Positions 1-15,873 of a stretch of DNA of 64,000 nt are shown here, in pieces. Position 1 is the stretch's first letter. Each line of letters begins with the position of its first letter. This DNA is from Candidatus Marinacidobacterales bacterium. Lineage in GTDB: Bacteria > Acidobacteriota > Vicinamibacteria > Marinacidobacterales > SMYC01. The translations under genes were made by a program, and so were the position numbers. Under the pieces are notes generated by a model. It saw only the letters and a list, made by a program, of their open reading frames with translations, had not been told where the DNA came from and made no database searches. The DNA is taken from contig CBDCYI010000011.1 of assembly GCA_965224085.1 (NCBI GenBank), forward strand, positions 672,001-736,000, given 5' to 3'.

Positions 1-1609
1 GAACCGTAACCTCTAGCTCGGATTCTGGAGAAAGCTTCTCGTCGTCCAAGCTGGCAAGGTCGGTGGCGAAATCGACTTCGATGGCGGGCTGTCCCTCCGC
101 ATAAAAGCTGGAGATGGAGACCGACAGCGGGAGGATGTTCTCGCTGGAGTAGAAGTCGGAGGAATCCTGCGCCATGGCCACCTTGACGGATTGCGCCATC
201 AGATGGCTCTCCTCGACAAGCTGCCGTCCCAGATCCCTGTAGGAGCCGAGAAGGAACCGCTGGTACAGGGGGAGGAACATTTGCCGGCTGGTGTACAGGT
301 CGCCCAAAGCCCTCGTCCGGTATGCGAGGACTCTCCGGGGATCGTCGGGCGCCGAGGGCCTGGTGGAGGCGACGCCCAAGTTCAAGGCCAGGGTCCACTC
401 ACCCACCCAGGGGCGCCTTACGAAGTGAAAGGCAAGAGGCTCGGAACCTAATCTCGTTATCTGCCAGGATTCCGTCTTGTCGCTTCCCGAGTAGTAGCGT
501 TCGGGGATTCGCCTGTCGGGAACGCCATGCCGGAGAAAGACAACGCCCCGATGGTCCACCCAATGGCGGCTGCGTTGCGCCAGCTTGAAAAACTCCAGTG
601 AATCGTAGTAGGGAAGCTGGGGCGACAGCGATAGAAACTCGTCCTTGTCGGTGAAGTAGCCTCTACCCGTCGATTGAAGCGGATAATCCGTGACGGCTCT
701 GGCTAGACGACGGTAGTGTCCGGCGATTCGTGGGTTGTCGTCTCGAGTCGGTACTGGATCTCGTCTTTTCCAGAACCGTCGGAAGAAATCCTTTCTCTCG
801 TCGGTGTCCCAGAGATCCGGGTACTCCTCCCATTCCGAGCTCGAAGCGATGGAGGAGATGTCGCGGAATAGCCTCTCAGCCGTTTGGGGCTCCAACCGCT
901 CCAGGACGCCCCGGTAGTAGCTCTCACCTTCTTCGTCCAATTTCATTTCGAACAGGGCACGAGCTTGAGTGAGGTCCAGGAGATTTCGAAGCCACCCTGT
1001 TGGTTCGGTGACGGCGACGTCTCGAAGCTCTTCGAGCGCCGCTTTGGGTTTTTCGAGCCTGAGTTGGATCTCGGCGCGCTGCCAGGCGGCGACGGGACCC
1101 GGGTGCGAAGCGATGACTTTCGCATGACTTTTCAGCTCCTTTTTGCTGGGGTTGAGAGCGAGCCAGAGATCGAAGACCTCGTCACCAAGAGAGGTGAGCT
1201 CCAATAACTCCGCCCTCAGATCCTTGAACTTCACTTTCGGCTCCGCTCTGAGCTCCAAGAGCACGCGGGCATAACGAAGCTTTGGAGAATCCGGTCCGCT
1301 TCGCGCAACCTCGAGGGCCTCCTCGTTTCTTCCAAGCTGGGAGAGAGTGACGGCAAGGCCGAGGCGAGCTTCGGCGTGAGTATCCAAGATGCTCTGGAAA
1401 GCGCCCTCCGCGAGGCCCCAGTCACCGGAGGCCGCATTCACGTATGCTTCCTCGAGACCTGGAGCGGCGGCCGAGGCATCGTCGAGCTCGAGCAAACTCA
1501 CGAGCCGATCGGGTTCGAGACCGATGTAGTGGGCCTCGGTGGTCGTCGATATAAAAAACGCCAGGCTCGCCAGGCTCGCGAGTCGGGACTCCCATCGATT
1601 TCTGCTCAT
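1..1609 (-). CDS. GWxTD-domain-like exported protein with N-terminal TPR-like helices (partial, runs off the left edge)
   Basis: Manual translation from ATG 1609, with GAGG just upstream, stays open to base 1. Contains FFRRFWKRRDPVPTRDDNPRIAGHYRRLARA and WVDHRGVVFLRHGVPD...ESW, matching the FWxxRDP...HYRR...DRG..Y...G.PD pattern of GWxTD proteins. Absent from the ORF track because no stop lies in the window. Confidence 0.75.
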   Translation of the reverse strand, partial: MSRNRWESRLASLASLAFFISTTTEAHYIGLEPDRLVSLLELDDASAAAPGLEEAYVNAASGDWGLAEGAFQSILDTHAEARLGLAVTLSQLGRNEEALEVARSGPDSPKLRYARVLLELRAEPKVKFKDLRAELLELTSLGDEVFDLWLALNPSKKELKSHAKVIASHPGPVAAWQRAEIQLRLEKPKAALEELRDVAVTEPTGWLRNLLDLTQARALFEMKLDEEGESYYRGVLERLEPQTAERLFRDISSIASSSEWEEYPDLWDTDERKDFFRRFWKRRDPVPTRDDNPRIAGHYRRLARAVTDYPLQSTGRGYFTDKDEFLSLSPQLPYYDSLEFFKLAQRSRHWVDHRGVVFLRHGVPDRRIPERYYSGSDKTESWQITRLGSEPLAFHFVRRPWVGEWTLALNLGVASTRPSAPDDPRRVLAYRTRALGDLYTSRQMFLPLYQRFLLGSYRDLGRQLVEESHLMAQSVKVAMAQDSSDFYSSENILPLSVSISSFYAEGQPAIEVDFATDLASLDDEKLSPESELEVTV

Positions 1610-1921
1610 GATGAACCCTCTATGATGTTTACTTGTCAGGCCATGTACGGATTGTTGGTTCGGGGTGCTAGGCGTGTTCGCCAGCGCGCTCCTGTCACTC
1701 GGGTGTGATCCCAACACACGTCAGAAGTCCGAAAGCCAGTGAAGAGCCTCGTGTGTGGTGCGAACGTTCCCGTGCTCCGTTTTCTCATTTTCATGGGAGC
1801 ACCTCCTGTCAGGCTGTCCGCGCTTCGGTTTCTGTAGACTTCCAGCGTAGCTCGCCGAGGGAGCTCCTCCCGTGAAGCACTGCACAAGAGACGGAACCAC
1901 GGAGCGCTACGATGCGAACGT

Positions 1922-3340
1922 ATGCTTATTTTTTCGAAGCGACGCGATGCGGTGTATGGACGAGCACAGTCTGTTGCCCGGGACACGCTTCTGCTCGCCG
2001 CCTTGACACTGATGGCGACGCCGACGACGGCGAGTTTCAGCTTCCTGTCTGCGCGACCCCTGTTCTACCCGTCGCTCGCTTCACAACAAGCGAGCGCGAC
2101 GGCGGAGAAAGAGAAATCCGTCGGAGAGACGCGTCGCGGTACGGAAACGGATGAAGAGAATAGGACTGGCCTCGACGACGAACTAGGCGCGACGTTGAGG
2201 GAGCTCGATGAGCTCCTGCTGCGTGAGCAAGAGCTGCTGGAGGAGAGTCGGGAGGCCGCGGAGTCGAGCTCTTCGGATAGCGGTAGCGCCGAAGAAGGGG
2301 AAGAAGACTCGGCCCGCGACGGTGAGAGTGAGGGTGAGGATAGTGCCCGCACGCCCGGTGGTGGCTCGAGTGGAGGATTCCCCGATGCGCCACCCGCTGT
2401 GCCCCTACCGCCGCCTGCCGGCATGCTCGCGGGCGGGGAACGGACGCAAACGACAATCGGTCGCGCGCCACCGCCACCGGACGTCAGCGACGGCGGAGAG
2501 ACGCGTCGCGGTGCGGAAACGGATGAAGAGAAAAGGGCTGGCCTCGACGACGAACTAGGCGCGACGTTGAGGGAGCTCGATGAGCTCCTGCTGCGTGAGC
2601 AAGAGCTGGCTGAGGAGAACCGTGAGGCCGCGGAGTCGAGCTCTTCGGATAGCGGTGGCGCCGAAGAAGGGGAAGAAAACTCGGCCCGCGTCGGTGAGAG
2701 TGAGGGTGAGGATAGTGCCCGCACGCCCGGTGGTGGCTCGGGCGGAGGATTGCCCGATGCGCCACCCGGTGTGCCCCTACCGCCGCCTGTCGGCATGCCC
2801 GCGGGCGGGGAACGGACGCAAACGACAATCGGTCACGCGCCACCGGACATCGGCGACGTCGGAGAGACGCATCGCGGTACGGAAACGGATGAAGAGAAAA
2901 GGGCTGGCCTCGACGACGAACTGCGCGCGACGTTGAGGGAGTTCGATGAGCTCCTGTTGCGTGAGCAAGAGCTGGTGGAGGAGAGCCGGGAGGCCGCGGA
3001 GTCGAGCTCTTCGGATGGCGGTGGCGCCGAAGGCGGGGGAGAAGACTCGGGCGCGAGCGCCGCGGACGACCGCGAGGGTGAAGATAGTGCCGGCACGCCT
3101 GATGGTGGCGCTGCCGGAGGATTGCCCGATGTGCCCCTACCGCCGCCGACGGGCACTCCCGCGGGTGGCGCGACAACCGGTCGTGCACCACGTCCACCGG
3201 ACGTCGGCGACGGTCGTGATGACGATATCGTGGCACGGCAACTCCGTGAGGCCGCGCAGAATGAAAAAGATCCCGCGCTGCGTGAAAAGCTGTGGGACGA
3301 GTACCGCGCCTACAAGCACGGAGCCAGCGTCAACAAGTAA
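1922..3340 (+). CDS. Acidic Gly/Pro-rich exported protein with three ~123-aa tandem repeats and C-terminal DDDIVARQLREAA..E.DP.LREKLWDEY motif
   Basis: 472-aa ORF with a hydrophobic N-terminal segment and three copies of LDDELxATLRExDELLLREQEL. First gene of the co-oriented cluster. Confidence 0.75.
   Translation: MLIFSKRRDAVYGRAQSVARDTLLLAALTLMATPTTASFSFLSARPLFYPSLASQQASATAEKEKSVGETRRGTETDEENRTGLDDELGATLRELDELLLREQELLEESREAAESSSSDSGSAEEGEEDSARDGESEGEDSARTPGGGSSGGFPDAPPAVPLPPPAGMLAGGERTQTTIGRAPPPPDVSDGGETRRGAETDEEKRAGLDDELGATLRELDELLLREQELAEENREAAESSSSDSGGAEEGEENSARVGESEGEDSARTPGGGSGGGLPDAPPGVPLPPPVGMPAGGERTQTTIGHAPPDIGDVGETHRGTETDEEKRAGLDDELRATLREFDELLLREQELVEESREAAESSSSDGGGAEGGGEDSGASAADDREGEDSAGTPDGGAAGGLPDVPLPPPTGTPAGGATTGRAPRPPDVGDGRDDDIVARQLREAAQNEKDPALREKLWDEYRAYKHGASVNK
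2123..3210 (+). repeat. Three in-frame tandem repeats (372 bp, 366 bp, third more diverged)
   Basis: The GGAGAGACGC.TCGCGGT.CGGAAACGGATGAAGAGAA motif starts at 2123, 2495 and 2861. Confidence 0.95.
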
Positions 3341-3381
3341 CCGGGCAATCATTGAATGACGATAAATGAAGGAGGACAGCG

Positions 3382-4615
3382 ATGCGGAGCCCAGATTTGA
3401 TTCTTCGGTGGACCGTCATCTGTATTTTCGCGGGAGGGCTTTTAGCTCCGTCTCTTTCGGCCAGAGAGAACCGGCAAGTGGACGCCATCCAAGCCCATTC
3501 CGAGATCCCGGAAGAAAGTCTCTTGGACGTAGGGATTCTCGTCTTCGATCCGGGACTGCCAGAAGACGAAGAGGAGGTCTACGATTTGGAAGCAAAGGGC
3601 GTCTTCGAAGGTGTCCGCAAGGCCGAGGCACGCTACATAGCAATCCAGCTCCAGCGGACTCTGGAGTCCACCGGTAACTGGGGCGCCGTGCGCGTCGTCC
3701 CGGCCGCGAATCGAGTGGACGTGAAAGTGTCGGGGCGCATCGTCACCTCGACGGGAAAGACTCTGGTCGTGAAGCTCCGCGTGGTGGATGCCCGCGGCCG
3801 CATTTGGCTGAACAAAAAATACAAGGGCAAGGCGAATGTAGGCTCCTATAGGCGTAAGGAAAGGTGACCGGCGGGATCCCTTTCAAAGCCTCTACAACCG
3901 AGTCGCCAACGACATGCTGAAGTTTCGCGACAAGAAACTCGACGCGGAGGATTTTCGGCAAGTGCGCATGGTCTCCCGCCTCGAGTTCGCCGGTGATCTT
4001 GCTCCCACCATCTTTGCCGACTATCTGCGCGTGGATAGGAAGGGACGCCGTTTCATCGAAAAACTGCCGGCGGAAAACGATCCCATGATGGAGCGGATCG
4101 CCGAGATTCGCGAACGGGATCGGATGTTCGTCGATACTCTCAACGAGCATTATGCCGACTTCTACACGAAGATGGATGAACCCTATGACAGTTGGCGATC
4201 CTTCGCCTACGAAGAGCAGAGAGAGCTCGACAGCCTGAAGAAAAAATCGAAGTGGGCGAAGATTCTAGGGACGGCGGCCGTCATCGGCGGTGCCGTGGCG
4301 GCCGCGAAGGGCGGAGCAGGAAGCTTTGCCGGACAAGCGGGTATCGGTGGCGGGATCGCCGCGATTACCTATGGGATGAAGCAGTCGGGGGATATCAAGA
4401 TGCACCTCGAGGCCATGCGTGAGCTCGGGGCCTCGCTCGATACCGACGTCTCCCCGATGGTGATCGACGTGGAAGGCGAGGTCACGAAGCTCAGCGGCTC
4501 TGTGGACATCAAGTACGCCACGTGGCGCCGGTTATTGCGGGAGATCTTCGCCGCCGAAACGGGGATTCCCATCGACCCCAACACGGAGGTCGATCTGGGC
4601 GCCCCGAGCAACTGA
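3382..4615 (+). pseudogene. Secreted hypothetical protein split by a +1 frameshift near 3850-3870
   Basis: ORF 3382..3867 has a signal peptide. The frame of ORF 3914..4615 is open upstream as KGDRRDPFQSLYNRVANDML and overlaps the end of the first ORF. Gly-zipper-like hydrophobic stretch (ILGTAAVIGGAVAAAKGGAGSFAGQAGIGGGIAAI). Could be a sequencing error. Confidence 0.7.
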
Positions 4616-4710
4616 GTCGTTCGCGACACCTGCACCAGCGTCATGTATGCGCTAGTGCAAGGTCAATCGCTCCATCGAAGGTTGACGTGAGTCAGAGAGA
4701 GGTGTGGCTG

Positions 4711-5895
4711 ATGCAATATCAGGAAAGTTCGGAACGCGCGGTGGCCACGCGTGCCGAGAAGTTCAAGCTCAGGCCTCCGCCGCGTGTGACGGTGAAACCC
4801 ATTCCGCTGGAATCAAAACGCCGGGTCAACGAGCTTCAGGGCGGAAAAAGTGGCGTCGGGTGGATCACGGTGACGGCCCTCGTCATCCTTCTCCTGATGG
4901 CGTTCTCGGTTTTCTTCGTCCTGCCGACGTGGGTGCACGACCGTTCGGCCCAAGCGGCGTTCATTGTCGAGCCTGTTGAGAGTGCCGAGCCTGTCGAGCC
5001 TGTTGAGCGTGTTGAGCCCGTCGAGCGTGCAACCGACGTTGCGGTAGCGTCCGCTGCGCCATTGCCCGTCACGGCGATCGAGAGCTCGCGGGCGCCGGCG
5101 TCTCCCAAAGATGAAGCGGAGCCTGCGCGGGAGCGCGCGACGGCCTCCCAACACGAAGCCGCGGCCGTCGGTCCGGTGGACGGGACGACCACCGAGCAGG
5201 CCTTTATCGAGGTCATGTCCCAAGGGATGGCGGCGCTCGAACGCGGAGACTACCGTGCCGCACGGGATGCTTTCCAGCGAGCCAACAGAATGCGACCAGC
5301 GGCGGCACAAGTCGCCGATGGACTGGCGCAGGCCGAGCAAGGCCTGAATCTTGAGGCGATGGCCGCCCTTCGCCAAAAGGCGCTCGCCTTCGAGGCGCGG
5401 GAGGCGTGGCGGGAGGCGTCGAAGCACTATCAAGCGGTGCTGGAGCTGGACCCGGCGATTCGCTTCGCTCAGCAAGGAAAGGCGCGGTCTCTAGAGCGAG
5501 CCGAGCTCTCCAAGCTGCTGGAGTTTCAACTGAAAAACCCATCGCGACTGTCCGATGACAAAGTGCTCGAAGAGGCGTCCGCGCTCCTCAGCACCTCTTC
5601 GGGAATCGAGCCCGCCGGTCCCGAGCTCCGGCGGCAGTTGAGCGCGCTCGAAGCGCTCATCGCCAAGGCCTCGATGCAGGTACGCGTCGCTTTCGAATCC
5701 GACGACTTGACCGAGGTCGTGATCTACAAAGTGGGCCGCCTGGGAAAATTCGCTCACCGGGAGCTGGACCTTCGTCCTGGCACTTACACGGTCGTGGGTA
5801 GCCGGCGCGGCTACCAGGACGTGCGGCGGCAACTCGTCGTCGCGGCGGGCGTCGGGCCCGAGCGCGTGGTGGTGCGCTGCGAGGTGAAGATTTGA
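4711..5895 (+). CDS. Membrane-anchored TPR-repeat protein
   Basis: ATG 4711 after GAGAGGTG. One TM helix (WITVTALVILLLMAFSVFFVLP), a VEPVE low-complexity linker, TPR-like helices (GMAALERGDYRAARDAFQRA; WREASKHYQAVLELDP) and a C-terminal beta domain (LRPGTYTVVGSRRGYQDVR). Confidence 0.8.
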   Translation: MQYQESSERAVATRAEKFKLRPPPRVTVKPIPLESKRRVNELQGGKSGVGWITVTALVILLLMAFSVFFVLPTWVHDRSAQAAFIVEPVESAEPVEPVERVEPVERATDVAVASAAPLPVTAIESSRAPASPKDEAEPARERATASQHEAAAVGPVDGTTTEQAFIEVMSQGMAALERGDYRAARDAFQRANRMRPAAAQVADGLAQAEQGLNLEAMAALRQKALAFEAREAWREASKHYQAVLELDPAIRFAQQGKARSLERAELSKLLEFQLKNPSRLSDDKVLEEASALLSTSSGIEPAGPELRRQLSALEALIAKASMQVRVAFESDDLTEVVIYKVGRLGKFAHRELDLRPGTYTVVGSRRGYQDVRRQLVVAAGVGPERVVVRCEVKI

Positions 5896-8324
5896 CGTCA
5901 CCGATCTACATCGAGGATGTTCGAGGCAGCCGCGTCGTCGCGGCTGGTGCGTTCCCCTTGACGCTGGGCGGGCCGGATGCTGACGTGGAGCTTCCAGGCG
6001 TTCACGCTCCCGAGCCCGTGGGCTACCTCGGTCTCTCGGAGGGAGAGCTCTTCGCACAGCCCGCAGAGACCGGCCCAGGGCTGGTCGGTAACGGCGCCCG
6101 TGTGTCGACGTCTCAGTGGCTCCACCCCGGTGACGTTCTCGTCATCGGTCACGCCCGGATCGTCGTCGAGCATGATGGGACGCTCACCCGATTGCGAGTG
6201 GAAGCAAACGGCGTGGAGAACAAAACGGACCCGCCCGAGGTGGTTTCTGCAGCGGCGCCACCGAAGCTCCATGCCGAGCTTTCCTCGAGCACGATCAAAC
6301 CCGTCGCTTTCGAGCCCGCTTCCATCACCACCGGACGTGGCAAGCGGCGCGCCCCTCGTCCTGCGGTGCTCGCGTTTTGGACCTCCGTGGTGCTTCTCGT
6401 CGCTTTCGGCTGGCTCGTCTTCAGCACACGATCCATCGAGGTTCGGATCGAGCCGCCAGCGGAGAGAGTCTTCTTCGAGGGCGGTCTTTATGCTCTCGAG
6501 CTGGGCGGCCGGCATCTCGTGCGCTCCGGGAGCTATACCCTCGTCGCGGAGAAAGAAGGTTATCGAAAACTGGAGGCTCGAGTCACGGTGACGAGTGAGG
6601 GCGGTCAAGTCTTCCGCTTCACCCTGCAGGAGCTCCCGGGTCGTCTCACCGTCGAGACGCCGGTGGATGGCGCCGTTATATGGATCGACGGCGAGAAGGC
6701 CGGGGTGACGCCGCTCGATCCGGTAGAGCTCCCAGCGGGCGAGCACGAGGTGCGGATTCGAGCCGAGCGCTATCAGGAATTCTCCACCCGGGTGAGCATC
6801 CAGCGTCGTGGCGTCGAAATATTGAAGGCCGAGTTCGTACCACGCTGGGCGCCCATCACGTTCCGCTCGGCGCCTGAGGGCGCCATCGTGCGCGTCGATG
6901 GCAAGAATCTGGGCACAACCCCCATCACGGTGGATCTCTTGGAGGGAGCTCATGCATACGAGCTGAGCGTGCGGGGGCGCAAACCACACCGAGGCCGGGT
7001 CACCGTCGTGGCCCGCGAAGAAAAAACTCTGCCCACGATGAGCCTTGCCCTCGTCGATGGGAATCTGCATCTCGAATCCAGCCCCGCGGAGGCCAATGTA
7101 ACCATCGACGGCGTCTACCAGGGTCAGACCCCATTGGACGTGGATCTTTCGCCCGGGGACGAACACGAGATGGGTGTGTCACGAGCCGGCTACGAGTCCC
7201 AATCGCGCCGAGTGCGGATCGACTCGGGCGTGAGCCAAACTCTGCGTGTCGATCTCGCCGTTCAACTCGGCGAGCTCGCGATCGCGGCCGACCCGCCCAC
7301 CGCCGAGTTCTTCGTCAACGGCGAGCCTCGCGGCCAGGCTAGCCAGCTCATTCGCCTTCCCGCCGTGGCGCAGCAGATCGAGATTCGGAAGGCGGGCTAC
7401 GAATCCTTCACCACAAACATCACTCCGCGGCCCGGATTCCCGCAAAGCATCGAGGTCACTCTCAAAACGTTGGAGGAGGCCATCACGGATGCCAGACGAC
7501 CCGTCATCAAAAGCGCTCAAGGACACGAGCTGCGGCTCATCGCCCCGCGCCGCTTCCAGATGGGCGCCTCGCGCCGCGAGCCGGGACGGCGGGCCAACGA
7601 GGCCATCCGGGACGTCGAGCTCACCCGCTATTTCTATCTCGGGACCAAGGAAGTCACCAACCGAGAGTTTCGCGCCTTCAAACCGGAGCACCGCTCGGGC
7701 TCGGTGAGAGATATCAATTTGGAGGGTGACCTTCTCCCCGTGGTTCGCGTGACCTGGGAAGAAGCGGCCGCGTACTGTAACTGGCTGAGCGATCGGGATT
7801 CACTCCCCCACGCCTACGTCCAGAAGGGAGCGACGCTGGCGCCGGTAACGCCTCCGAACACCGGTTACCGGCTGCCCACGGAAGCGGAATGGGCGCGGGC
7901 GGCGCGCTATCCCGATGGGGAGCGCGGGCGCAAATACCCTTGGGGTGGCGCGCTGCCAGTAGCCCCGGGCTCGGGAAATTATGCCGATGCCTCCGCCCAG
8001 GCATTGGTGGCCGCCATCCTGCCGAAATATAACGACGGGTTTGCGGCGACGGGCCCCGTGGATAGCTTCGACCCCAACCCGATGGGTCTTTTCAACCTGG
8101 GAGGAAACGTCGCGGAGTGGATCCAGGATCTTTATACGATCCGCCCATCGGGCACATCCAAGCTCGTACGGGATCCGCTGGGCCCCACGCAAGGGAAGTT
8201 TCATGTCATTCGGGGGTCGAGCTGGATGCACGGCCGAGTGACTGAGCTCCGTCTGAGCTTCCGCGACTACGGAAATAAGAAGCGGCCCGATGTGGGGTTC
8301 CGCATTGGGAGATACGCCGAATAG
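5892..8324 (+). CDS. FHA-like/TM/multi-PEGA/FGE-sulfatase (SUMF1) domain protein
   Basis: N-terminal beta domain, TM helix, about five PEGA-type repeats (GAVIWIDGEKAGVTPL, GAIVRVDGKNLGTTP, ANVTIDGVYQGQTP) and FGE-fold motifs (FQMGAS, EVTNREF, VTWEEAAAYCNWLS, YRLPTEAEW, NPMGLFNLGGNVAEW, GFR). 4-nt overlap with the upstream gene. Confidence 0.9.
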   Translation: MTSPIYIEDVRGSRVVAAGAFPLTLGGPDADVELPGVHAPEPVGYLGLSEGELFAQPAETGPGLVGNGARVSTSQWLHPGDVLVIGHARIVVEHDGTLTRLRVEANGVENKTDPPEVVSAAAPPKLHAELSSSTIKPVAFEPASITTGRGKRRAPRPAVLAFWTSVVLLVAFGWLVFSTRSIEVRIEPPAERVFFEGGLYALELGGRHLVRSGSYTLVAEKEGYRKLEARVTVTSEGGQVFRFTLQELPGRLTVETPVDGAVIWIDGEKAGVTPLDPVELPAGEHEVRIRAERYQEFSTRVSIQRRGVEILKAEFVPRWAPITFRSAPEGAIVRVDGKNLGTTPITVDLLEGAHAYELSVRGRKPHRGRVTVVAREEKTLPTMSLALVDGNLHLESSPAEANVTIDGVYQGQTPLDVDLSPGDEHEMGVSRAGYESQSRRVRIDSGVSQTLRVDLAVQLGELAIAADPPTAEFFVNGEPRGQASQLIRLPAVAQQIEIRKAGYESFTTNITPRPGFPQSIEVTLKTLEEAITDARRPVIKSAQGHELRLIAPRRFQMGASRREPGRRANEAIRDVELTRYFYLGTKEVTNREFRAFKPEHRSGSVRDINLEGDLLPVVRVTWEEAAAYCNWLSDRDSLPHAYVQKGATLAPVTPPNTGYRLPTEAEWARAARYPDGERGRKYPWGGALPVAPGSGNYADASAQALVAAILPKYNDGFAATGPVDSFDPNPMGLFNLGGNVAEWIQDLYTIRPSGTSKLVRDPLGPTQGKFHVIRGSSWMHGRVTELRLSFRDYGNKKRPDVGFRIGRYAE

Positions 8325-8351
8325 GAAGAACTTGGACTAAGGAGGCCTGAG

Positions 8352-8544
8352 ATGAGATTCGTTCTATATGCGCTCTTGGCATTGACTCTTTTGGGAGCTC
8401 GTCTGGCATCGACGATGACCGTTACGAGTGGACAAAGCAAACAGAAACAAGACGAGCTTCCCACGTTGAGACGAGCTTCCCACGTTCACCCCTACGGAGA
8501 AAGTACCCGCGGGCATTGCTGTCTCGTTTCCCGCGGATATCTAA
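8352..8544 (+). pseudogene. Small secreted protein (restored C-terminus FTPTEKVPAGIAVSFPADI) frameshifted by a 19-bp tandem duplication
   Basis: GGAGG RBS and signal peptide. AGACGAGCTTCCCACGTT occurs at 8450 and 8469. Removing one 19-bp unit gives a frame ending at TAA 8542-8544, 4 nt before the MotA/ExbB start. Confidence 0.7.
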
Positions 8545-8548
8545 GTAA

Positions 8549-9346
8549 ATGAAAAAAAACTACCCGGTCGAATTCATGTATCAGGCGTTCTCGTTGCTCG
8601 TGGCGGTGATCCTCGTCCACGCGGTCTACGTGTTGCTGGTGAGGCCGAAAGCGGATGTCGTCCTGGCCACCGCGCAGGCGTTCATGGAGGTCGAGAAGGG
8701 CTACGTCCAGGAGCGATCCTTCTGGGTCATCGTCCGCGATATCGAACAGGAATCCTGCTTCATCCTCATGTTCTGGGCGCTGGCCATCATCGCGTATAAG
8801 GGTGTGCTGGCCTCTCGCGAGCACCAGCTTCTGCAGAAGGACCTCGTGCCGCTCGCCGCAGGCTCGAAGGTCCTTCCCGAGGACGCCCGGGAATATGCCC
8901 GGCAGATCCAGTCGCTTCCCGATATCGAGCGAAGCCGCTTATTGCCGCGCGCTCTTCTGTCGGCGCTCGGCCGCTTCCGAGCCACGCGCAACATTCAGGA
9001 CGTTTCCGCCACCGCCCACGCGGTGTGCGCCTCGGAATCGGATCGGCTCGAGTCGGAGCTTTCCATGGTGCGCTATATCGCCTGGGCCATTCCTTCCATA
9101 GGCTTCATCGGAACCGTCCGCGGCATCGGCGAGGCCCTCGCCCAGGCCCACAAGGCGGTGGAAGGCGACATCGCCGGGGTTACCCAGAGCTTGGGTGTCG
9201 CCTTCAACTCCACTTTCGTCGCGCTCCTCATCAGCATCTTGCTGATGTTCGTCCTGCATCAGCTTCAGCTTCAACAGGATCGACTCGTTCTGGAGACGGA
9301 CAACTATCTCGACGGCCGCCTCATCGAGCATCTTCAGGTCTCCTAG
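8549..9346 (+). CDS. MotA/TolQ/ExbB proton channel family protein
   Basis: Motifs WAIPSIGFIGTVRGI and LGVAFNSTFVALLISILLMF. Four hydrophobic segments. Confidence 0.92.
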   Translation: MKKNYPVEFMYQAFSLLVAVILVHAVYVLLVRPKADVVLATAQAFMEVEKGYVQERSFWVIVRDIEQESCFILMFWALAIIAYKGVLASREHQLLQKDLVPLAAGSKVLPEDAREYARQIQSLPDIERSRLLPRALLSALGRFRATRNIQDVSATAHAVCASESDRLESELSMVRYIAWAIPSIGFIGTVRGIGEALAQAHKAVEGDIAGVTQSLGVAFNSTFVALLISILLMFVLHQLQLQQDRLVLETDNYLDGRLIEHLQVS

Positions 9347-9376
9347 CGATCGAGGTTTTCACTATTTTGGATTCTC

Positions 9377-10468
9377 ATGGCGCGCAGCACACCTAATGTT
9401 TTAAGCCTGTCCTTTCTGGACGCGATGACCTGCGGGTTCGGCGCCGTGGTGCTGCTCTTCATGATCCTCAGCGCCGGCTTCGGCGAGCGCTCGGGGAAAA
9501 TGAGCGGGGAGCTTCAAGGTGAGGTCGACCGTCTGCACAAGGAGGTTTTGGAGGGTTATCAGAACCTGGTGGTGCTCCGAAACTCCGTCACGGAGATCGA
9601 TCGGGAAAACGTCGTCACCGCGGGTCTTTCGAAGCGGCTCCTCGAGACCCTCGAGACGATTCGAGTCGAGCTGGCCAATGACGAGAACGAGACGCTGGCG
9701 CGACGAGAGCACGTCAACAAGCTCAAGGCGGATCTCAAATCGCTCGAGGAGGATGTCAAACGCCTTTCCGCGGCGGCCCCGAGCGAAGAGACGCCGGGCG
9801 ACAAGCTTCTGAGCTTCGTGGGAAGCGGGGACCGGCAGTACCTCACCGGCCTGAAGGTCGGCGGAAGACGTATTCTCGTGCTCGTCGACACCTCGGCGAG
9901 CATGCTGGGGGAGACCATCGTCAACATCATTCGCCGGCGCAACATGCCCGACGAGGCGAAGATCCGCGCCGCGAAATGGCAGCAGACCCTTTCGACGGTG
10001 AACTGGATCGCCACTCAGATCCCCCCCGCGAGCAGCTTTCAAATCTATACGTTCAACACTCGAGCAGGCGCCGTGGTGGCGGGGACCGACGGGACGTGGC
10101 TGAACGGGGGCAACCGTGGGGATCTCGACAAAGCAGTCCAGGCCTTCCGACGCGTGGTTCCGGAGGGCGGCACCAATCTCTATCAGGCCTTCAAGGCCAT
10201 CGAGACGCTGCGCCCGGCGCCGGACAATATCTTTCTTCTCACCGACGGGCTCCCCACACAAGGGAGGAAGCCGCCCCGTGGCCGTACCGTGTCCGGTAAG
10301 GATCGCGCCAAGTTTTTCAACGAAGCTCTCTCCAAGCTCAGCGGTAGAACCCCCGTCAACGTGATCCTCTTCCCCATAGAAGGCGATCCCCAGGCGCCCA
10401 GTGCCTTTTGGAAGCTGGCCGTCTCCTCGGGAGGCGCCTATGTGAGCCCTTCGGAGGACTGGCCATGA
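9377..10468 (+). CDS. ExbD/MotB-like TM + coiled coil + vWA domain protein (1)
   Basis: N-terminal TM with Asp (LSFLDAMTCGFGAVVLLFMIL), heptad region, MIDAS DTSAS, GGTNL and LLTDGLP. Confidence 0.88.
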   Translation: MARSTPNVLSLSFLDAMTCGFGAVVLLFMILSAGFGERSGKMSGELQGEVDRLHKEVLEGYQNLVVLRNSVTEIDRENVVTAGLSKRLLETLETIRVELANDENETLARREHVNKLKADLKSLEEDVKRLSAAAPSEETPGDKLLSFVGSGDRQYLTGLKVGGRRILVLVDTSASMLGETIVNIIRRRNMPDEAKIRAAKWQQTLSTVNWIATQIPPASSFQIYTFNTRAGAVVAGTDGTWLNGGNRGDLDKAVQAFRRVVPEGGTNLYQAFKAIETLRPAPDNIFLLTDGLPTQGRKPPRGRTVSGKDRAKFFNEALSKLSGRTPVNVILFPIEGDPQAPSAFWKLAVSSGGAYVSPSEDWP

Positions 10469-10496
10469 AGAGAGCTCCCGGCGCGGTGGTGTAGAA

Positions 10497-11474
10497 GTGT
10501 TCAGCCTCTCTTTCCTGGACGTCATCTGTTGCGGCTTTGGCGCCATCATCCTACTTCTCGTATTGGTCAAGATTGGTGAGCCGAGGGCACTCGAAGCCGC
10601 TCAGGCGGAACGGATAGGCCTGGTGGCAAAGCTGCAAGAAGAGCTATACGAGATCCGGGGGGAGACGAACGTGCTCAACCGCAAGCTCGTGACGAAACGG
10701 GAGCAAGTCTCCGAGGAGACGGTCAAGGTTGCCAGGCTCCGGGGCGACCTCAGCAAGATCCAAGGACAATTTGCCGCCAGCGCGCAGCTCTCCCAAGTCA
10801 GCGACATCGTCGAGGGGAGGTTGTTGGCCGCGCAGCAGGAGCTGAGCGAAGAACAGAAGCGCCTTCGCGGCAAGCGCTCTCGGCCGCGCCCGAAAGACGC
10901 TCCCATCGGCGGGATCCCCGTGGACAGCGAGTACATCATCTTCATCATCGACACCTCGGGCAGCATGAAGAGATTCGCCTGGCCTCTGGTGATGAAGAAG
11001 CTAGTGGAGACGCTGAGCATCTACCCCAAAGTGAAGGGCATCCAGGTGATGAACGATATGGGGCAGTACCTGTTCAAGAGCTACTCGGGAAAGTGGATTC
11101 CCGACACGTCCGGCCGGCGCAAAGTGATTCTGGACCGGCTGCGTGGCTGGGCCCCGTTCAGCAACTCGAGCCCGGTGGAGGGGATCACCCGCGCCATACG
11201 AACCTACGCCAGCCGGGACCACAAGGTGAGTCTCTACATCTTCGGCGACGAGTTCACGGGAGATTCCATCGATGCGGTGGTGGAAACGGTGGATCGGATC
11301 AACCGGAAAGATGCCGATGGCCATCGTTTGGTGAGAATCCACGCCATCGGTTTCCCCACCGTGTTCTCGAATGCTGGATTTTCGCAGAACACCGGGATCC
11401 GCTTCGCCACCTTGATGCGCATCCTCGCCCGCAAAAACGGCGGCGCCTTCGTGGGACTGAGCCGGGCTCGGTAG
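10497..11474 (+). CDS. ExbD/MotB-like TM + coiled coil + vWA domain protein (2)
   Basis: LSFLDVICCGFGAIILLLVLV and MIDAS DTSGS. The ATG at 10465 overlapping the upstream stop is out of frame by one base, so the true start may be frameshifted. Confidence 0.85.
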   Translation: MFSLSFLDVICCGFGAIILLLVLVKIGEPRALEAAQAERIGLVAKLQEELYEIRGETNVLNRKLVTKREQVSEETVKVARLRGDLSKIQGQFAASAQLSQVSDIVEGRLLAAQQELSEEQKRLRGKRSRPRPKDAPIGGIPVDSEYIIFIIDTSGSMKRFAWPLVMKKLVETLSIYPKVKGIQVMNDMGQYLFKSYSGKWIPDTSGRRKVILDRLRGWAPFSNSSPVEGITRAIRTYASRDHKVSLYIFGDEFTGDSIDAVVETVDRINRKDADGHRLVRIHAIGFPTVFSNAGFSQNTGIRFATLMRILARKNGGAFVGLSRAR

Positions 11475-11855
11475 CTCGTCGACGGTATTGTCAAGTTGAG
11501 GGCTTCAAGGCCGATTCGACCCCAAGGTATGGGTTGACGGCGTGTCCTCGAGCCCCACGATATTGGGGCGCGATTCGACAACTAATAAGAAACTCAGGGT
11601 GTAGCGTTTGGGGGCAGTGACGTCAAAACCGAGCTCCCTCAGGCGTCGTGTTGAGCCGGTGCCACCTCCAGAGACTACCGCGTTTCATTCATTCGGGGTG
11701 GCCGTCAGGCCGTGGAAAACTTGACAGCAATGGTACCGCCCGCGTGGGCGGAGGTCATCGGGGAGTGACCGAAATCGTTCGTTCACTCGAAAGTACCTGA
11801 TGGCCTAACCTGTCGATGCCAGCGCTTTGAGCCGCTGCTCCGCATCCGCGGCTAG

Positions 11856-13857
11856 CCCATGTTTCCCTTTTAGGTCTCTAAGTCATCATAAACAAAGGAC
11901 TGAGATCCGCGGTTTGTCTCTACGCTGACAGCACCTCCTCGGAGAAGGCTGGCGGGTCGCGTTCAACGATTCCGAGTGCAGTCAGGATCGAGTTGGCGCG
12001 AGCGGTGCCGCGCGTGACGACGCGCTTGGTCCGCCCAGAACCCAGCTGTAAGTCGACGAGCCGGACCGAGCGTAGCGCTTGTAGTGCCTCGGTTGCGGAC
12101 AGGTCGAGTTCGGCGACCTTGAGCTTTTTCTCAAGAGCCCGATGCACAAGGAAGGCCAGCGTAGCTACGAAAAGATGTGCCTCCACACGCTCATCGGTCT
12201 GGTGGTAAACGGGACGCATCTCAATGACATCCTTAAGGCATGAGAAGGCTCGCTCGACCTCGTTTAGGTCCTTGTAAAGGCGCACGGCGTCGACCGGAGA
12301 GAGGTTTTGCTCCTCGGTTTGAATAACGTACTTACCCTCGTAGGCTTGCTCGCGCTTGAGGTTGACCGGGTGCTCGAAGAAGCGGAAGCGAGCGTTTTTG
12401 TACTCCCAGTCGTAGTAACGGTGACCGTGGTGGCGTGCCTGTATGCGCGCGGCGGCGGCACCGATTTTCTCGGGGGCTTTCAATCGTCCCTCGCGCACGC
12501 GGCGCTCAAGGGCCTCGAATGCCGCACGGGCACGTCCCATGGCCCGCAGCCTCTGCCCGCGCTCGTAGGCGAGCCTTTCGTCGCTGTGAACGACGAAGAT
12601 GCGCACGCCAGACTGCTCGGAGCGGACTTCTTGCACACGAGTCTTAGGTGGCTCGGCTTTTTCGCTCACCGTGATGCCACCAGGGCAGTCGATCCACTCT
12701 CCGCTGGCGCGCTCGATGTAACGATAGACCTCCTCGCGCCGTCGTCTTTGCAGCCCGACGAGATAGCCCTGCTTGCGCGAGCGCACCACCGCCAGGCTGT
12801 CGCTCGTTACCATCCCTCGGTCGCCGACAAAAACCACGCGGTGCAAACCGAATCGTTCGTTGAGATCGTTGAGCACCTGCGGCACCGTTTTCGCGTCACG
12901 CCAGTTGCCGGCGAAAACATGGTGGGCGATCGGCCAACCGTCCACCATCACCAGACCGACAAGCACTTGCCGGTTACGCGGTCTGCGGTCGCGACTGTAG
13001 CCGTGGGCGCCGAGCCCCGGAGGGCCTTGACCTTCGAAGTACGTCGACGTCAGGTCGTAAAACACCATGTCAACCTCAAGCGAAAACAGATCCCGCAAGC
13101 GCAAAAACAGCTCTTTCTCGATCTGTTCTTTGCGGGCATGCAGCTGGTCGAGCGTTCGGTACCATTGCTTGAGTTGGCAAAACTCCACGCGAACCCGCGG
13201 GGAGCGACTCGCTCGCCGCTCCCCATCATCGCGCCACTGCGGCACCCACCGCCGCCCCTGCCGGTCGCAGACGAAGTCGGTCTCGAGCCAGCGCGCCAGA
13301 CCGTGCTCGCTTGACGGAGCACATAGCCGGTTGGCGACCAGCACCAAAGCTCGCTCGCTTAGCGCCACTCCGTCGCGCTTGCCGCGGCCTCCGAGCCGGT
13401 CGAGAATCTGCTCCAGTCCGAGCTCGCGCCACAGCGTCGCCGTCACCACCATCGGACCCCAATCCCACGCGTCTGCCCCCGCGATCTGCTCGGCTGCTCG
13501 CTCGGTGTCGGCCGGTTCACCGGCCCCAAGCAACCGATTGAGGGAGTCGAGATTGGCAACTAGGAGATCCTTGCGCCCCAAGTTGCACACTACGCGTTGC
13601 TTCGGCTTGCCGTGCTCCCGATACGACTCGACCAGGCGGACATACTCATGTTGAACCCCTTTGCCGCCTGCGGCCCGAACGATGCGGAAGAACATAACCT
13701 GTCCTCACGCATACTACATATCATTGTCCACGATTACAACGTATTAATGGCGCTCAAAGCACAATATCTGTCTCTACGTTTTGGGCAAATTCAACCCCCG
13801 TTCCTTTGAATTCAGTCACTTACGAGCGTTAGGGTGCCCATAAAGGGTAAACATGGG
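11856..13857 (-). mobile_element. IS1634-family insertion sequence
   Basis: Terminal IRs CCCATGTTT...AAACATGGG with CTAG duplicated on both flanks (11852-55, 13858-61). Confidence 0.88.
11920..13695 (-). CDS. IS1634 family transposase
   Basis: YVRLVESYR..GKPKQRVVCNLGR N-terminus. DDE motifs FYDLTSTYFEG, FVGDRGM and VERAFSCLK. Confidence 0.92.
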   Translation of the reverse strand: MFFRIVRAAGGKGVQHEYVRLVESYREHGKPKQRVVCNLGRKDLLVANLDSLNRLLGAGEPADTERAAEQIAGADAWDWGPMVVTATLWRELGLEQILDRLGGRGKRDGVALSERALVLVANRLCAPSSEHGLARWLETDFVCDRQGRRWVPQWRDDGERRASRSPRVRVEFCQLKQWYRTLDQLHARKEQIEKELFLRLRDLFSLEVDMVFYDLTSTYFEGQGPPGLGAHGYSRDRRPRNRQVLVGLVMVDGWPIAHHVFAGNWRDAKTVPQVLNDLNERFGLHRVVFVGDRGMVTSDSLAVVRSRKQGYLVGLQRRRREEVYRYIERASGEWIDCPGGITVSEKAEPPKTRVQEVRSEQSGVRIFVVHSDERLAYERGQRLRAMGRARAAFEALERRVREGRLKAPEKIGAAAARIQARHHGHRYYDWEYKNARFRFFEHPVNLKREQAYEGKYVIQTEEQNLSPVDAVRLYKDLNEVERAFSCLKDVIEMRPVYHQTDERVEAHLFVATLAFLVHRALEKKLKVAELDLSATEALQALRSVRLVDLQLGSGRTKRVVTRGTARANSILTALGIVERDPPAFSEEVLSA

Positions 13858-14202
13858 CTAGTTCCCGGGTCAGATCGCCGGCGCCGATTTCGCGGCCGAG
13901 ACTGCCGCCTGTCCCGACCACAGCGAAGAGAAATCGCTGGACCCTGCCGCCTCCGCTTTTGCTTTCAGCGGCGCCAGGGCCCTGCCAGCCGTCGGGAACG
14001 CTGGCGCCCGGTCCGACATCGGCCCGACCTCCCGCATGACTCGATTCATCAGCCCCCGCGACGGTCTGCCGGAAAACACGTTGGTCCATGCAGTTTGGTC
14101 GTCACGCGCGGCGCGTAGTGCAGCGCGGTGTAGATCCGTGATCAACGACTCCGGCGTGAAAAGGTAAGCGGTGCCGATTTGAGCACCTGCCGCGCCGAGA
14201 GC

Positions 14203-15688
14203 TGCTGCTCACACAGACCTCACGGACAATTGCGAGCAGGTTTTCGACGAGCCCCTGTTCTGGCGACACTCCAGACAGCAGGGCCGGCGCGTGAAGAGTT
14301 GTAGCGATAGCAACTCACTGCTCGATTGGCCGCGCTCCTGACCTGCTGCGCCCTCTTGCGGTGCTCGGAGAGCCGCTCTAGCAGATTCTCCTCACGGCCG
14401 AAGTACACCTCGTCTGGTGTACGACCGCCGAGAACGGCGCGCGCGATCTTTTCATTGTGCTCACCGACGTAGAAGGCGACGAGACGCCGTACCGCCGCCG
14501 TACTGTCGAGGGCGTTCAGGAAGAGCCATGCGTGCTTCAATTGTCGCCAAAACGCTTCGATCAAAGAGTTCGAGCAGACTATGTCGATTTGCGCGAGCAC
14601 GCGACTGAGAGAACTTGAATCCTTGAGAAGTTGATCTACCTCGCCGAAGTTCTCCGAACCGCCGTCGGTGACGACAAGCACGCTGGCGTTCGCTGCGGCG
14701 ACAGGGACGTTCTCTGAGGCCTCAATGAGCAGCTCGCGTGTTGTTGCCGAGCTCAGAGCGTCGCTCACCCGCCAAGCAAGAATCCTTCGGCTGAAGTTGT
14801 CGATGACCGCTTGGAGGTAGATTCGGATGCCGGTCGTCAGCCGGAGCACGGTTGTGTCGATTTGCCAATACTCGTTGGGCCGCGTTGCTCGGAGGCCTTC
14901 TTTGGGCTTCGCGGGATGCACCCGCCTTCGAGGACGCTTCCAGCTGCGCTCGTGGATCATCTTGTACCAAGTGCTCACACAGGCGAAGAGCTTGCCAAGG
15001 CGCTGCACGTAGAGAGCCACGTTCTGGATCGCTATATGACGATATGTCTCGGCCTCGACAAAATCCCTCATCGTGGAGACTTCGTCACGCGTGAGCTGGC
15101 TGGGAAAGGATTTCGGACAGCTCGATTGATCGTCAAGCCCGCAGCCCTCTTCTTTGCGTCGCCAAGCGTGATAACGCGCCGATGAGATGCCTACGATCTG
15201 AAGTGCGGTGCCCAGCGACAGCAGGCCGGTCGCCGACGCGATCGCGCGCAGAACGGCGGATTGTTTTGCACCATCGGGAAGGCGATCGCCGTCGAGTTTA
15301 CCGCCACGGAGATTCAACAGCCGCACCAGTAATCCGATGATCGCCGACTGCACTCTCGCTCGCTGACATAGTTTATCGACCTGCTCCAACAGTTCGTAGA
15401 CCTCTAGCTCAACGTCGACCGCAGCGACCACTGGACGCACCTCGCCACGTGCCCATGTGCGCCGCGTCGAGGCCGGGATGGAAACGTCCCGGAACAGGTC
15501 CGCGTTACCGGTCGCGGCGATGGCATCGCGCAGCCTATGGTCGTAGGTTTGTCGAACTCGGAGGCTTCCTTCCATGCCCAAGCATGGCAGGCAGCTATTC
15601 ACATGGCCAGCCGGCCACTCATAGAAGTCTGCGAACGATCCTGTCGAACGTTCGCTCTCCTTACTCCAGAATGATCGTGCGAGTAGCA
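14203..15688 (-). mobile_element. IS3/IS481-like insertion sequence (rve integrase-core transposase)
   Basis: Imperfect IRs TGCTGCTCACAC and TGCTACTCGCAC (reverse complement). No target duplication. The flanks come from unrelated genes. Confidence 0.7.
14220..15575 (-). CDS. DDE-type integrase/transposase
   Basis: WQIDTT, IDNFSRRILAW, VTDGGSEN, NSLIEAFWRQLK and LGGRTPDEVY. Confidence 0.88.
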   Translation of the reverse strand: MEGSLRVRQTYDHRLRDAIAATGNADLFRDVSIPASTRRTWARGEVRPVVAAVDVELEVYELLEQVDKLCQRARVQSAIIGLLVRLLNLRGGKLDGDRLPDGAKQSAVLRAIASATGLLSLGTALQIVGISSARYHAWRRKEEGCGLDDQSSCPKSFPSQLTRDEVSTMRDFVEAETYRHIAIQNVALYVQRLGKLFACVSTWYKMIHERSWKRPRRRVHPAKPKEGLRATRPNEYWQIDTTVLRLTTGIRIYLQAVIDNFSRRILAWRVSDALSSATTRELLIEASENVPVAAANASVLVVTDGGSENFGEVDQLLKDSSSLSRVLAQIDIVCSNSLIEAFWRQLKHAWLFLNALDSTAAVRRLVAFYVGEHNEKIARAVLGGRTPDEVYFGREENLLERLSEHRKRAQQVRSAANRAVSCYRYNSSRAGPAVWSVARTGARRKPARNCP

Positions 15689-15873
15689 CTGCAGCGAAGC
15701 ACCAGGCCTTTGTCGGAACCGGCTACTTTGATGCCGTACAGAGCACGATCACCGGCGGCAAAGCATCGATAACCGCGATGCGAGGCAGCACGGAAGAAGC
15801 ACAGTTCTCCCTGCGAGAGGTCGACGAGTCGAACGAAGCGACCCGAACGTCGCCGACACTGGCGGCGCCATGA
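15688..15873 (+). pseudogene. aceA: Isocitrate lyase C-terminal remnant
   Basis: Manual translation [40 protein letters not shown] matches the AceA C-terminal HQxxVGTGYFD...GSTEExQF signature. Begins exactly at the IS end. Confidence 0.85.

Follow-up and report, generated by a model that had tools for sequence, protein, structure and literature searches.

Ion motors with a 5:2 architecture drive flagella, nutrient uptake, outer-membrane constriction, gliding and phage defence. Flagellar MotAB and Zorya ZorAB are built in this way, with an Asp in the B subunit. Here we describe a gene cluster from a Candidatus Marinacidobacterales bacterium, located in a 64,000-nucleotide stretch of contig CBDCYI010000011.1 (positions 672,001 to 736,000; hereafter the window, with positions counted from its first letter). 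The cluster is real and widely conserved, and on the sequence evidence it most likely builds a motor of the cell envelope, driven by ions, with two adhesion-type (vWA) heads at the tip of its central shaft. An earlier reading of the DNA letters alone (the sequence-only reading) had reported eight co-oriented, tightly packed genes. We find the same eight, all on the + strand and closely spaced at 1922-11474, and call them g1 to g8.

A motor with an axle ending in metal-dependent adhesion domains was predicted as late as 2025 (PMC12204202, Mol Biol Evol). The available text of that paper describes transmembrane (TM)-tethered vWA genes in heterologous pairs, adjoining tolQ homologues without tolR or exbD. 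In its AlphaFold3 model a TolQ-like pentamer holds the Asp of both vWA proteins within a threonine ring, and no experiment is reported in that text. Idiomarina iohensis is the reference organism, and Proteobacteria and Verrucomicrobia are listed. The central inference of the sequence-only reading, a 5:2 stator with a heterodimeric vWA-tipped core, is already present there. That core is well supported by our sequence data, but the word "uncharacterised" has to be qualified, since the core had been predicted and modelled.

Two further systems share parts with the cluster. In the Agl-Glt machinery, as the available text of PMC11761067 describes it, AglR5 surrounds an AglQ/AglS heterodimer, GltG (FHA plus TM) docks on AglR, and TPR proteins and MreB take part. 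The MoxR-vWA ternary conflict systems, in the available text of PMC7159879, contain vWA, FGE-fold, PEGA, FHA and Hsp70-fold domains and have a MoxR ATPase or GTPases as their base.

The available text of PMC12204202 mentions no PEGA, FGE (formylglycine-generating enzyme), kinase, Hsp70-fold, TolB_N-fold or small-peptide partner; its Figure 4c and supplementary folders SS1 and SI3 may show neighbours. We found no description of the accessory parts (the g2 fold, the arms, the FPxDI protein, the kinase and the Hsp70-FHA protein) in a literature search that left subscription journals mostly uncovered. New here is a parts list for the predicted motor: a constant core of eight genes, a phospho-switch that is optional and a tiny, obligatory C-terminal motif.

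The motor core

The A subunit is encoded by g6 (8549-9346), a member of the MotA/TolQ/ExbB family (Pfam MotA_ExbB, E 3.8e-14) with three strong hydrophobic segments and a TolQ-aligned pore helix. It contains the PSIGFIGTV motif picked out by the sequence-only reading. Pro182, Thr189 and Thr222 are invariant in 40 of 40 aligned sequences, and the two Thr residues align with the TolQ pore helices.

Directly after it stand two vWA genes. vWA1 (g7, 9377-10468) has a TM helix with Asp15 and Cys19, a coiled coil of about 100 residues and a vWA head (Pfam VWA_2, E 5.4e-06) with a complete metal-ion-dependent adhesion site (MIDAS; D171-S173-S175, T266, D290). vWA2 (g8, 10465-11474, or from 10497 when read from a GTG) has a TM helix with Asp8 and Cys12, a coiled coil and a vWA head with an invariant DxSxS (D152-S154-S156) and Asp251, numbered from GTG 10497. 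The DxSxS motif and the distal Asp are kept in both heads, and the SFLD motif is present in both proteins, as had been read. Asp15 is found in 55/55 aligned vWA1 sequences and Asp8 in 45/45 vWA2 sequences. vWA2 has no Pfam vWA match, yet its profile aligns to that of vWA1 over 307 columns (hhalign, 99.5%) with 24% identity; the TM columns contain no His and no SHLS motif is present. The coiled coil, at residues ~40-150, is supported by GCN4 and SMC-type matches. The invariant residues and the profile alignment bear out the claim of two paralogues, each with an Asp-bearing TM helix, a coiled coil and a MIDAS-type vWA domain.

The spacing from the TM Asp to the MIDAS is typically 156 residues in vWA1 and 143 in vWA2, and drops to 132-140 and 131-137, respectively, in a divergent group. 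It co-varies between the two proteins (rho 0.67, n=72 loci, in which kin are not independent). Such co-shrinking stalks fit a matched heterodimeric shaft. Both B-type helices also carry an invariant Cys four residues, or one helical turn, after the Asp (9419-9433 and 10518-10532). The two helices could be joined here by a disulfide or a metal.

No PF02472 (ExbD/TolR) match was found at either copy of the cluster in this genome, and the genome's three ExbD genes all adjoin its two other PF01618 genes. Profile searches of the PDB with the g2 and vWA profiles returned nothing useful beyond coiled-coil and weak integrin matches. In a plasmid search, the PF01618 genes found were distant ones only.

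Conservation of the gene order

Of the 95 relatives found by a GTDB scan with vWA1, the best 80 were kept; they belong to Acidobacteriota, Desulfobacterota, Gammaproteobacteria and a few further groups. The sequence-only reading had left its synteny to be checked, and it is conserved: g3, g4, MotA (g6) and both vWA genes were present in 41/41 fully flanked GTDB loci, and g1 and g2, and with them all seven large genes, in 40/41. The small gene g5 was found in 63/63 loci with room for it.

A further search with the MotA profile was used to avoid selecting on vWA1. At E <1e-50 it matched 36 of 400 sampled Gammaproteobacteria genomes (~9%), a count that includes the search centre and G043 (flagged unpublished) and in which G252 was not scored. 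It also matched 4/200 other Acidobacteriota (E <1e-100) and 3/200 other genomes in the phylum of G002 (E <1e-75). Of the strong regions picked by MotA we fetched 20, namely 16 of the 24 in Gammaproteobacteria and all 4 in Acidobacteriota; of the 13 mid-range regions we fetched 10. Fifteen of the 20 strong regions held the whole set and two were cut by contig ends; L093 had MotA with the vWA pair, and L092 and L097 had MotA alone. In the ten mid-range regions, g2 to g8 were present throughout. This gene order across three phyla is far beyond chance.

In the genome's own family, 17/18 relatives carry one copy each, and two copies are found only in this genome. The cluster is also kept in genomes of 1.7-2.0 Mb (G321, G056, G404). 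We then surveyed 34 genomes that carry this MotA, several of them incomplete, with the neighbourhood inspected in 29. TolB_N was present in 33/34 and FliF in 9/34, and no type VI secretion system (T6SS) sheath (VipB) scored over the cut-off in any of the 34, some of which are incomplete. No FliF was found in the genome studied here. The cluster is therefore additional to Tol-Pal and is not tied to flagella or T6SS.

Other MotA groups were seen during these searches. In L093 (2633-7852), the MotA and the vWA pair adjoin a thrombospondin-3-repeat/OmpA protein, a possible alternative outer partner. A sister MotA group (L116, L118, L119; also L117, L120, L121) matches the window MotA family at E 1e-20 to 1e-29. 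Its neighbours are a single TM-vWA gene with a helix Asp (ALDLF motif), FHA, a PP2C phosphatase, Ser/Thr kinases and trypsin-TM-FHA genes, and from these domains it appears to be a second motor-vWA system, rich in phospho-signalling. A more distant MotA group (L122:8272-13876, L124:5004-9988) is followed by genes with Glu or Asp in the N-terminal helix and no vWA or ExbD match; an FGE-domain gene lies further on, with SPOR in L122. This is possibly another undescribed 5:2 variant.

Accessory proteins

The g1 product (1922-3340) is largely disordered; one helix and a helical motif at the C-terminus (DDDIVARQLREAA...) are conserved. It has no Pfam family above cut-off, and an Atlas search returned unnamed clusters only, without a common Pfam family. 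A lipobox-like start is present in 33 of 76 homologues. The claim that all eight proteins are exported or membrane-bound fails strict proof for g1, which has no hydrophobic segment above threshold and can be called exported only by inference. The middle block of g1 is triplicated here into ~124-aa tandem units (2120-3230), each with the conserved helix, and short-read contigs fragment across this repeat region.

g2 (3382-4615) is predicted to be exported and consists of a TolB_N/FlgT/PelC/CsgG-type N-domain, a helix of ~70 residues and a Gly-rich hairpin. In relatives it is a single open reading frame (ORF) of ~410 aa. No Pfam family was matched, and the Atlas search gave clusters without a common Pfam family. 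A structure model was made on the intact paralogue from a second, complete cluster on contig C5 of the same genome (pLDDT 81). Its N-domain resembles TolB (VIA Z 11.5, root-mean-square deviation (rmsd) 2.7, 101 aligned), the FlgT ring (Z 11.0), PelC (Z 10.3) and CsgG (Z 9.9); this fold search barely tested the long helix and the hairpin. From the model, g2 is probably an outer-membrane ring or tether. An isolated 34-codon fragment far from both clusters (G000:C11:1138889-1138990) is 62% identical to the C-terminal part of g2.

The likeness to CsgG and PelC, together with the long helix and Gly-rich hairpin after that domain, would also suit transport. By analogy, the shaft would pull a plug or substrate in a g2 outer-membrane pore for uptake or export, and the FPxDI protein would be a plug or adaptor like CsgF in CsgG. 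No TonB or receptor gene is linked to the cluster, and a non-catalytic FGE domain could bind cargo. We regard transport as improbable: the conserved order contains no conserved cargo, ABC transporter or catabolic gene, and FPxDI does not behave as a general sorting tag.

Two single-pass proteins follow g2. g3 (4711-5895) has a single TM, a periplasmic TPR region (Pfam TPR) and a C-terminal PEGA-like beta domain, and lacks the kinase here. g4 (5892-8324) has a degenerate FHA-like domain, a TM, five PEGA repeats and a non-catalytic FGE/SUMF1-fold domain. Pfam agrees with its designation as PEGA-FGE (five PEGA and FGE-sulfatase), but the FHA-like N-terminus had been overlooked; the FHA match is weak (E 0.19 in L001). 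The catalytic-Cys region of the FGE domain aligns with non-Cys residues, and 24/52 FGE domains are entirely without Cys. Likeness to the gliding proteins GldJ and GldK had also been proposed. There is a resemblance in fold, but the scores lie far below the cut-offs (105.7 against 350 bits for GldK, 39.5 against 458 for GldJ). A His within the TM region is found in 11/78 g3 and 13/78 g4 sequences and is not conserved. No cluster protein matched the Pfam TonB_C domain.

g5 (8352-8544) encodes an exported protein of ~57 aa ending in FPADI. At E 0.001 or better, this peptide family has 2303 representatives. The motif stands at the last residue in 150/150 top matches, all of 40-124 aa, and the Pro and terminal Ile are invariant (61/61). 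The penultimate residue is Asp in 78 of 95 loci and Asn in 17. In the divergent loci, g5 is little beyond a signal peptide and ~15 residues. The FPxDI motif was considered as a general sorting tag and rejected: in this genome it occurs solely on the two cluster genes, and no large protein was among the 150 top matches.

Because the required free acidic C-terminus of g5 stands beside two intact MIDAS sites, we infer that it is the simplest ligand candidate for the vWA heads. A predicted complex of the C5 FGE domain, vWA1 head, vWA2 head and the last 32 residues of the peptide scored 0.76-0.77 in three runs. With the peptide replaced the score was 0.00 in two controls, and with the FGE domain replaced it was still 0.76, so the score may stem from a kept chain. 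We count this result neither in favour of binding nor against it. The charge of g5 correlates weakly with that of a basic loop in vWA1 (rho 0.28). Co-variation of the g5 Asp/Asn with partner residues was uninformative, with signals in every protein that came from one clade.

The kinase and the Hsp70-fold protein

Most relatives have two parts that the window copy lacks. A gene of ~470 aa lies between MotA and vWA1 in 70/70 GTDB loci including MotA and in 67/68 metagenome loci with room. Its model (pLDDT 91.6) has the Hsp70 nucleotide-binding fold (Foldseek E 6.8e-19) and is closer to Ssz1 (VIA Z 30.8, rmsd 3.4, 324 aligned) than to MreB (Z 25.3). Canonical Hsp70 has Gly-rich phosphate-loop motifs. 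In this protein the loops are replaced (E/D-[IL]-N-D; D-x-[GH]-L-H-R), and a C-terminal FHA stands instead of the substrate-binding domain. An invariant surface T-R-F-D-P-x-H and a near-invariant H-R pair replacing the second phosphate loop were seen in L081:8676-10091 and its homologues; this invariant surface motif is likely a binding site, not an ATP site.

The second part is a Ser/Thr kinase, fused to or preceding g3 in 31/41 flanked loci. In 79 loci chosen for having the core, the kinase was missing from 35 and the Hsp70-fold gene from 8. The Hsp70-fold gene with FHA was kept in 44/44 kinase-bearing loci compared with 16/35 kinase-less ones, and this co-retention suggests a kinase-to-FHA switch. 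Seven divergent loci have neither the kinase nor the Hsp70-fold gene, and both FHA domains are missing there as well; L089 is composed like the window copy. The eight-gene form is thus a natural one.

The kinase, FHA and FGE parts resemble T6SS post-translational control. They raise the question of whether the cluster senses envelope damage or contact, after the manner of Zorya or TagQRST/PpkA; the motor would then report to a phospho-threonine pathway without bulk mechanical work. The sister MotA group is in line with such sensing, as L116, L118 and L119 adjoin an Asp-bearing TM-vWA gene and FHA, PP2C, kinase and trypsin-FHA genes, and so is a weak ZorA match over the shared pore helices (E 2.7e-05; 10 cluster proteins scanned). 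We consider such a sensor quite unlikely, somewhat more so than transport. The 34 carriers have no T6SS sheath over the cut-off, and the kinase is missing from nearly half of the 79 loci. The cluster is a near-universal single copy in the family, unlike patchy defence systems. It has no nuclease, helicase or long ZorA tail, and in PADLOC 8/10 proteins had no match and the kinase matches were generic. Stable single-copy inheritance and the absence of effectors argue against defence.

With an actin-fold protein in the place of MreB and a vWA domain as the adhesive element, the parts list parallels that of Agl-Glt as given in the available text of PMC11761067. A surface-motility or adhesion machine analogous to that of Myxococcus may be envisaged on this basis. 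For its other vWA family, which is TolA-like, the available text of PMC12204202 proposes gliding. In addition, 25/34 carriers have no FliF match, and the FGE domain resembles GldK. Against this, the cluster has no TonB_C domain or beta-barrel gene, and its vWA heads are tethered at the inner membrane and are not surface lipoproteins. The actin-fold gene is nearer to Hsp70 than to MreB, its ATP motifs are degenerate and it is absent from 8 of the 79 loci; the cluster persists in genomes of 1.7-2.0 Mb, and the GldK score is far under its cut-off. Motility is therefore an unlikely function, if the least unlikely of those set against work on the outer envelope.

The copy in the window

The sequence-only reading took the window cluster for the complete machine. 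It is a reduced, partly broken second copy. The C5 cluster is complete, with 48-75% protein identity to the window copy, and adds the kinase and the Hsp70-fold-FHA gene, both absent from the window copy. A remnant of the start of the deleted Ser/Thr kinase domain is left at 4643-4690 (+ strand). When this scar was compared with the first kinase residues of relatives, 0/5000 shuffles matched as well for L003 and 2/5000 for L001; it was not significant against L023 and L081. The nearest sister, L127 (82% DNA identity), retains the Hsp70-fold gene. Together with the complete C5 copy and the kinase scar, this indicates that the losses in the window copy are secondary. A candidate Hsp70-FHA scar between MotA and vWA1 lines up with the last codons in 2/4 relatives, but 1555 and 1595 of 5000 shuffles did as well and it was rejected; a second kinase remnant just 5' of g3 was likewise not significant in the shuffle test.

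Further damage is present in this strain. A frame break near 3860 interrupts g2, with a stop at 3865-3867. The natural ATG of vWA2 at 10465 is out of frame, which leaves the GTG at 10497 as the start and removes a basic N-terminal tail. In the related strains X10 and X20, net differences of -2 and -5 put the ATG in frame; the g2 break lies outside the listed X10 and X20 pieces. Read-derived contigs from runs X2 and X4 (two studies, one of which may be the source) span 2893-10952. They equal the window base for base, save for the absence of 19 bases at 8450. This 19-base duplication, which makes g5 look frameshifted, is also absent from X20 and contig L126. The X2 and X4 agreement indicates that g5 is intact and the duplication an assembly artefact, and that both the break in g2 and the displaced ATG of vWA2 are genuine.

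The direct MotA-vWA1 junction is common to X20 and L126, and purifying selection still acts on MotA in the window lineage (dN/dS 0.37 against L126, with 15 differences, and 0.23 against L127). The reduced form is thus a lineage trait, with this strain's copy eroding further. In a neighbour-joining tree (no support values; L059 and L067 misplaced), the window MotA lies amid acidobacterial loci that carry kinase and Hsp70-fold genes. The contigs of X20, an RNA run, have ~92-99% identity over most genes; DNA may be present in the library, so they give no expression evidence. We conclude that the window copy is probably an eroding extra copy and the C5 copy the working one, because the switch and, in this strain, an intact g2 have been lost.

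We also looked at the surroundings of the cluster. Upstream, at 2-1717 (- strand), lies a divergent TPR plus GWxTD-domain gene that is outside the conserved order. Directly 3' of the cluster (11496-15689) are two transposase genes (DDE_Tnp_1, rve). Read depth at 11496-12200 is in the thousands in runs X2 and X4, which points to a highly repeated element. More transposases are found at 32840-34204 and 42684-44057. Family content was scanned for 46 ORFs taken as likely genes from the 99 of at least 150 aa. In agreement with the sequence-only reading, none of these 46 matched a TonB, TonB-dependent receptor, Pal or flagellar family.

Discussion

In the mechanism that we propose, five A subunits would surround one vWA1 and one vWA2 helix, and ion flow would shift the coiled-coil shaft relative to the pentamer. 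The metal-dependent vWA heads would grip an acidic ligand in the periplasm, for which the free FPxDI C-terminus of g5 is the likeliest candidate. As single-pass arms, g3 (TPR) and g4 (PEGA5-FGE) may sit beside the pentamer and, with g1, reach g2. Through g2, with its TolB_N/PelC/CsgG fold, force would be passed to the outer membrane or cell wall. In many lineages an optional cytoplasmic regulator may be added, in which the kinase would produce a phospho-Thr bound by the FHA of the Hsp70-fold pseudo-ATPase.

Our tentative first choice, held at slightly less than even confidence, is a TolQ/ExbB/MotA-type 5:2 motor in the inner membrane that is driven by ions and works mechanically on the outer envelope by way of g2. 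Work on the outer envelope is followed in our order of preference by motility or adhesion, transport, sensing or defence, and a passive scaffold.

Several findings count against this choice. In a search of the PDB with the g6 profile, TolQ was the sole match and the similarity is weak (E 0.035). The acidic position of TolQ helix 3 is Val, Thr or Ile in g6, with no Glu. A lipobox-like pattern is found in only 48/79 g2 homologues, and likeness in fold does not establish a ring. The Asn at the penultimate g5 position means that the Asp side chain cannot be a universal MIDAS ligand. L093 (no g1-g5), L092 and L097 show that the accessory set is not obligatory. Lastly, the reduced form may work in sister strains, given the purifying selection on MotA and the shared Hsp70-less junction.

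The missing helix-3 acid and the weak similarity to solved motors, together with several degenerate accessory domains (FGE, Hsp70-fold, g4 FHA), could also point to a non-conducting scaffold that reuses the 5:2 fold. We find this very improbable, the most so of all the alternatives, since the two Asp and the two pore Thr do not vary across three phyla, the pattern that ion conduction would maintain.

A more specific version of the envelope motor can be formulated. The cluster would be a self-contained, undescribed trans-envelope machine, in which a heterodimeric shaft driven by the proton-motive force carries integrin-like MIDAS heads. These would grip the free C-terminus of a dedicated micro-protein encoded by the genome, as short as ~15 residues after the signal peptide, and pull or twist a TolB_N/PelC/CsgG-fold outer-membrane ring, with the Hsp70-fold pseudo-ATPase as a kinase-FHA-docked cytoplasmic clutch. 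This version is possible but doubtful. If true, this would add another functional class to the 5:2 motors and place force-bearing adhesion of the integrin kind within the bacterial periplasm.

Presence in ~9% of sampled Gammaproteobacteria and nearly all of the acidobacterial family, tiny genomes included, makes a basic role in marine and sediment bacteria likely. The FPxDI C-terminal motif is an obvious handle for mutagenesis, and the Methylophaga isolate SB9B (WP_136553308.1), with a vWA1 homologue, would open the cluster's function to testing. The window copy is of less importance. It is partly broken and demonstrates that the switch can be lost; the intact C5 copy is the better object of study.

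Comparison with known systems

Two accessory domains differ from their enzyme relatives. The two catalytic Cys of the C-terminal core of formylglycine-generating enzyme were not found in the g4 domain. The C5 gene shares the actin-like nucleotide-binding fold of Hsp70/DnaK, but not the Gly-rich phosphate loops or the substrate-binding domain. From the MoxR-vWA systems the cluster differs in having no MoxR, and the available text of PMC7159879 does not mention ExbB or TolQ.

In its proposed working the cluster resembles a Tol/Ton/Agl-type 5:2 motor, while by its gene content it falls outside Tol-Pal, Ton, Agl-Glt, Zorya and T6SS control. With Zorya it shares the weak ZorA profile match on the pore helices. 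Compared with Zorya and MotAB, it lacks an OmpA-like peptidoglycan-binding domain on the B subunits, a long cytoplasmic tail and ZorC/D/E. With Agl-Glt, on the available text of PMC11761067, it would have in common a pentamer holding two unlike B subunits. Both also include TPR proteins, an FHA-TM arm, an actin-fold protein and, in one place or another, a vWA domain. However, AglQ and AglS are TolR-like, and the vWA protein there, CglB, is a surface adhesin. Agl-Glt also needs the TonB_C-bearing GltG/J and outer-membrane beta-barrels, none of which is in the window cluster (no ExbD or TonB_C Pfam match).

Tol-Pal and Ton share with the cluster the PF01618 A subunit with a pore Pro/Gly/Thr pattern, the Asp-bearing B helix and a TolB_N-fold partner. 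In contrast, the cluster's B subunits end in a coiled coil and a vWA head and not in an ExbD/TolR domain. The cluster is also without a TolA/TonB-type transducer (no conserved TM His in g3 or g4), Pal or receptor, and a separate TolB is kept.

The closest system is the transpore-helix vWA (TPH-vWA) class in the available text of PMC12204202. No Idiomarina was among our named homologue matches, and the comparison is one of described features. In each feature that could be tested, the cluster matches this class. As there, a tolQ-like gene is tightly linked to TM-tethered vWA genes without a linked tolR, exbD or motB; the vWA genes form a heterologous pair with a TM Asp in each and no SHLS; and the threonine-ring residues of the A subunit are conserved, here as Thr189 and Thr222.

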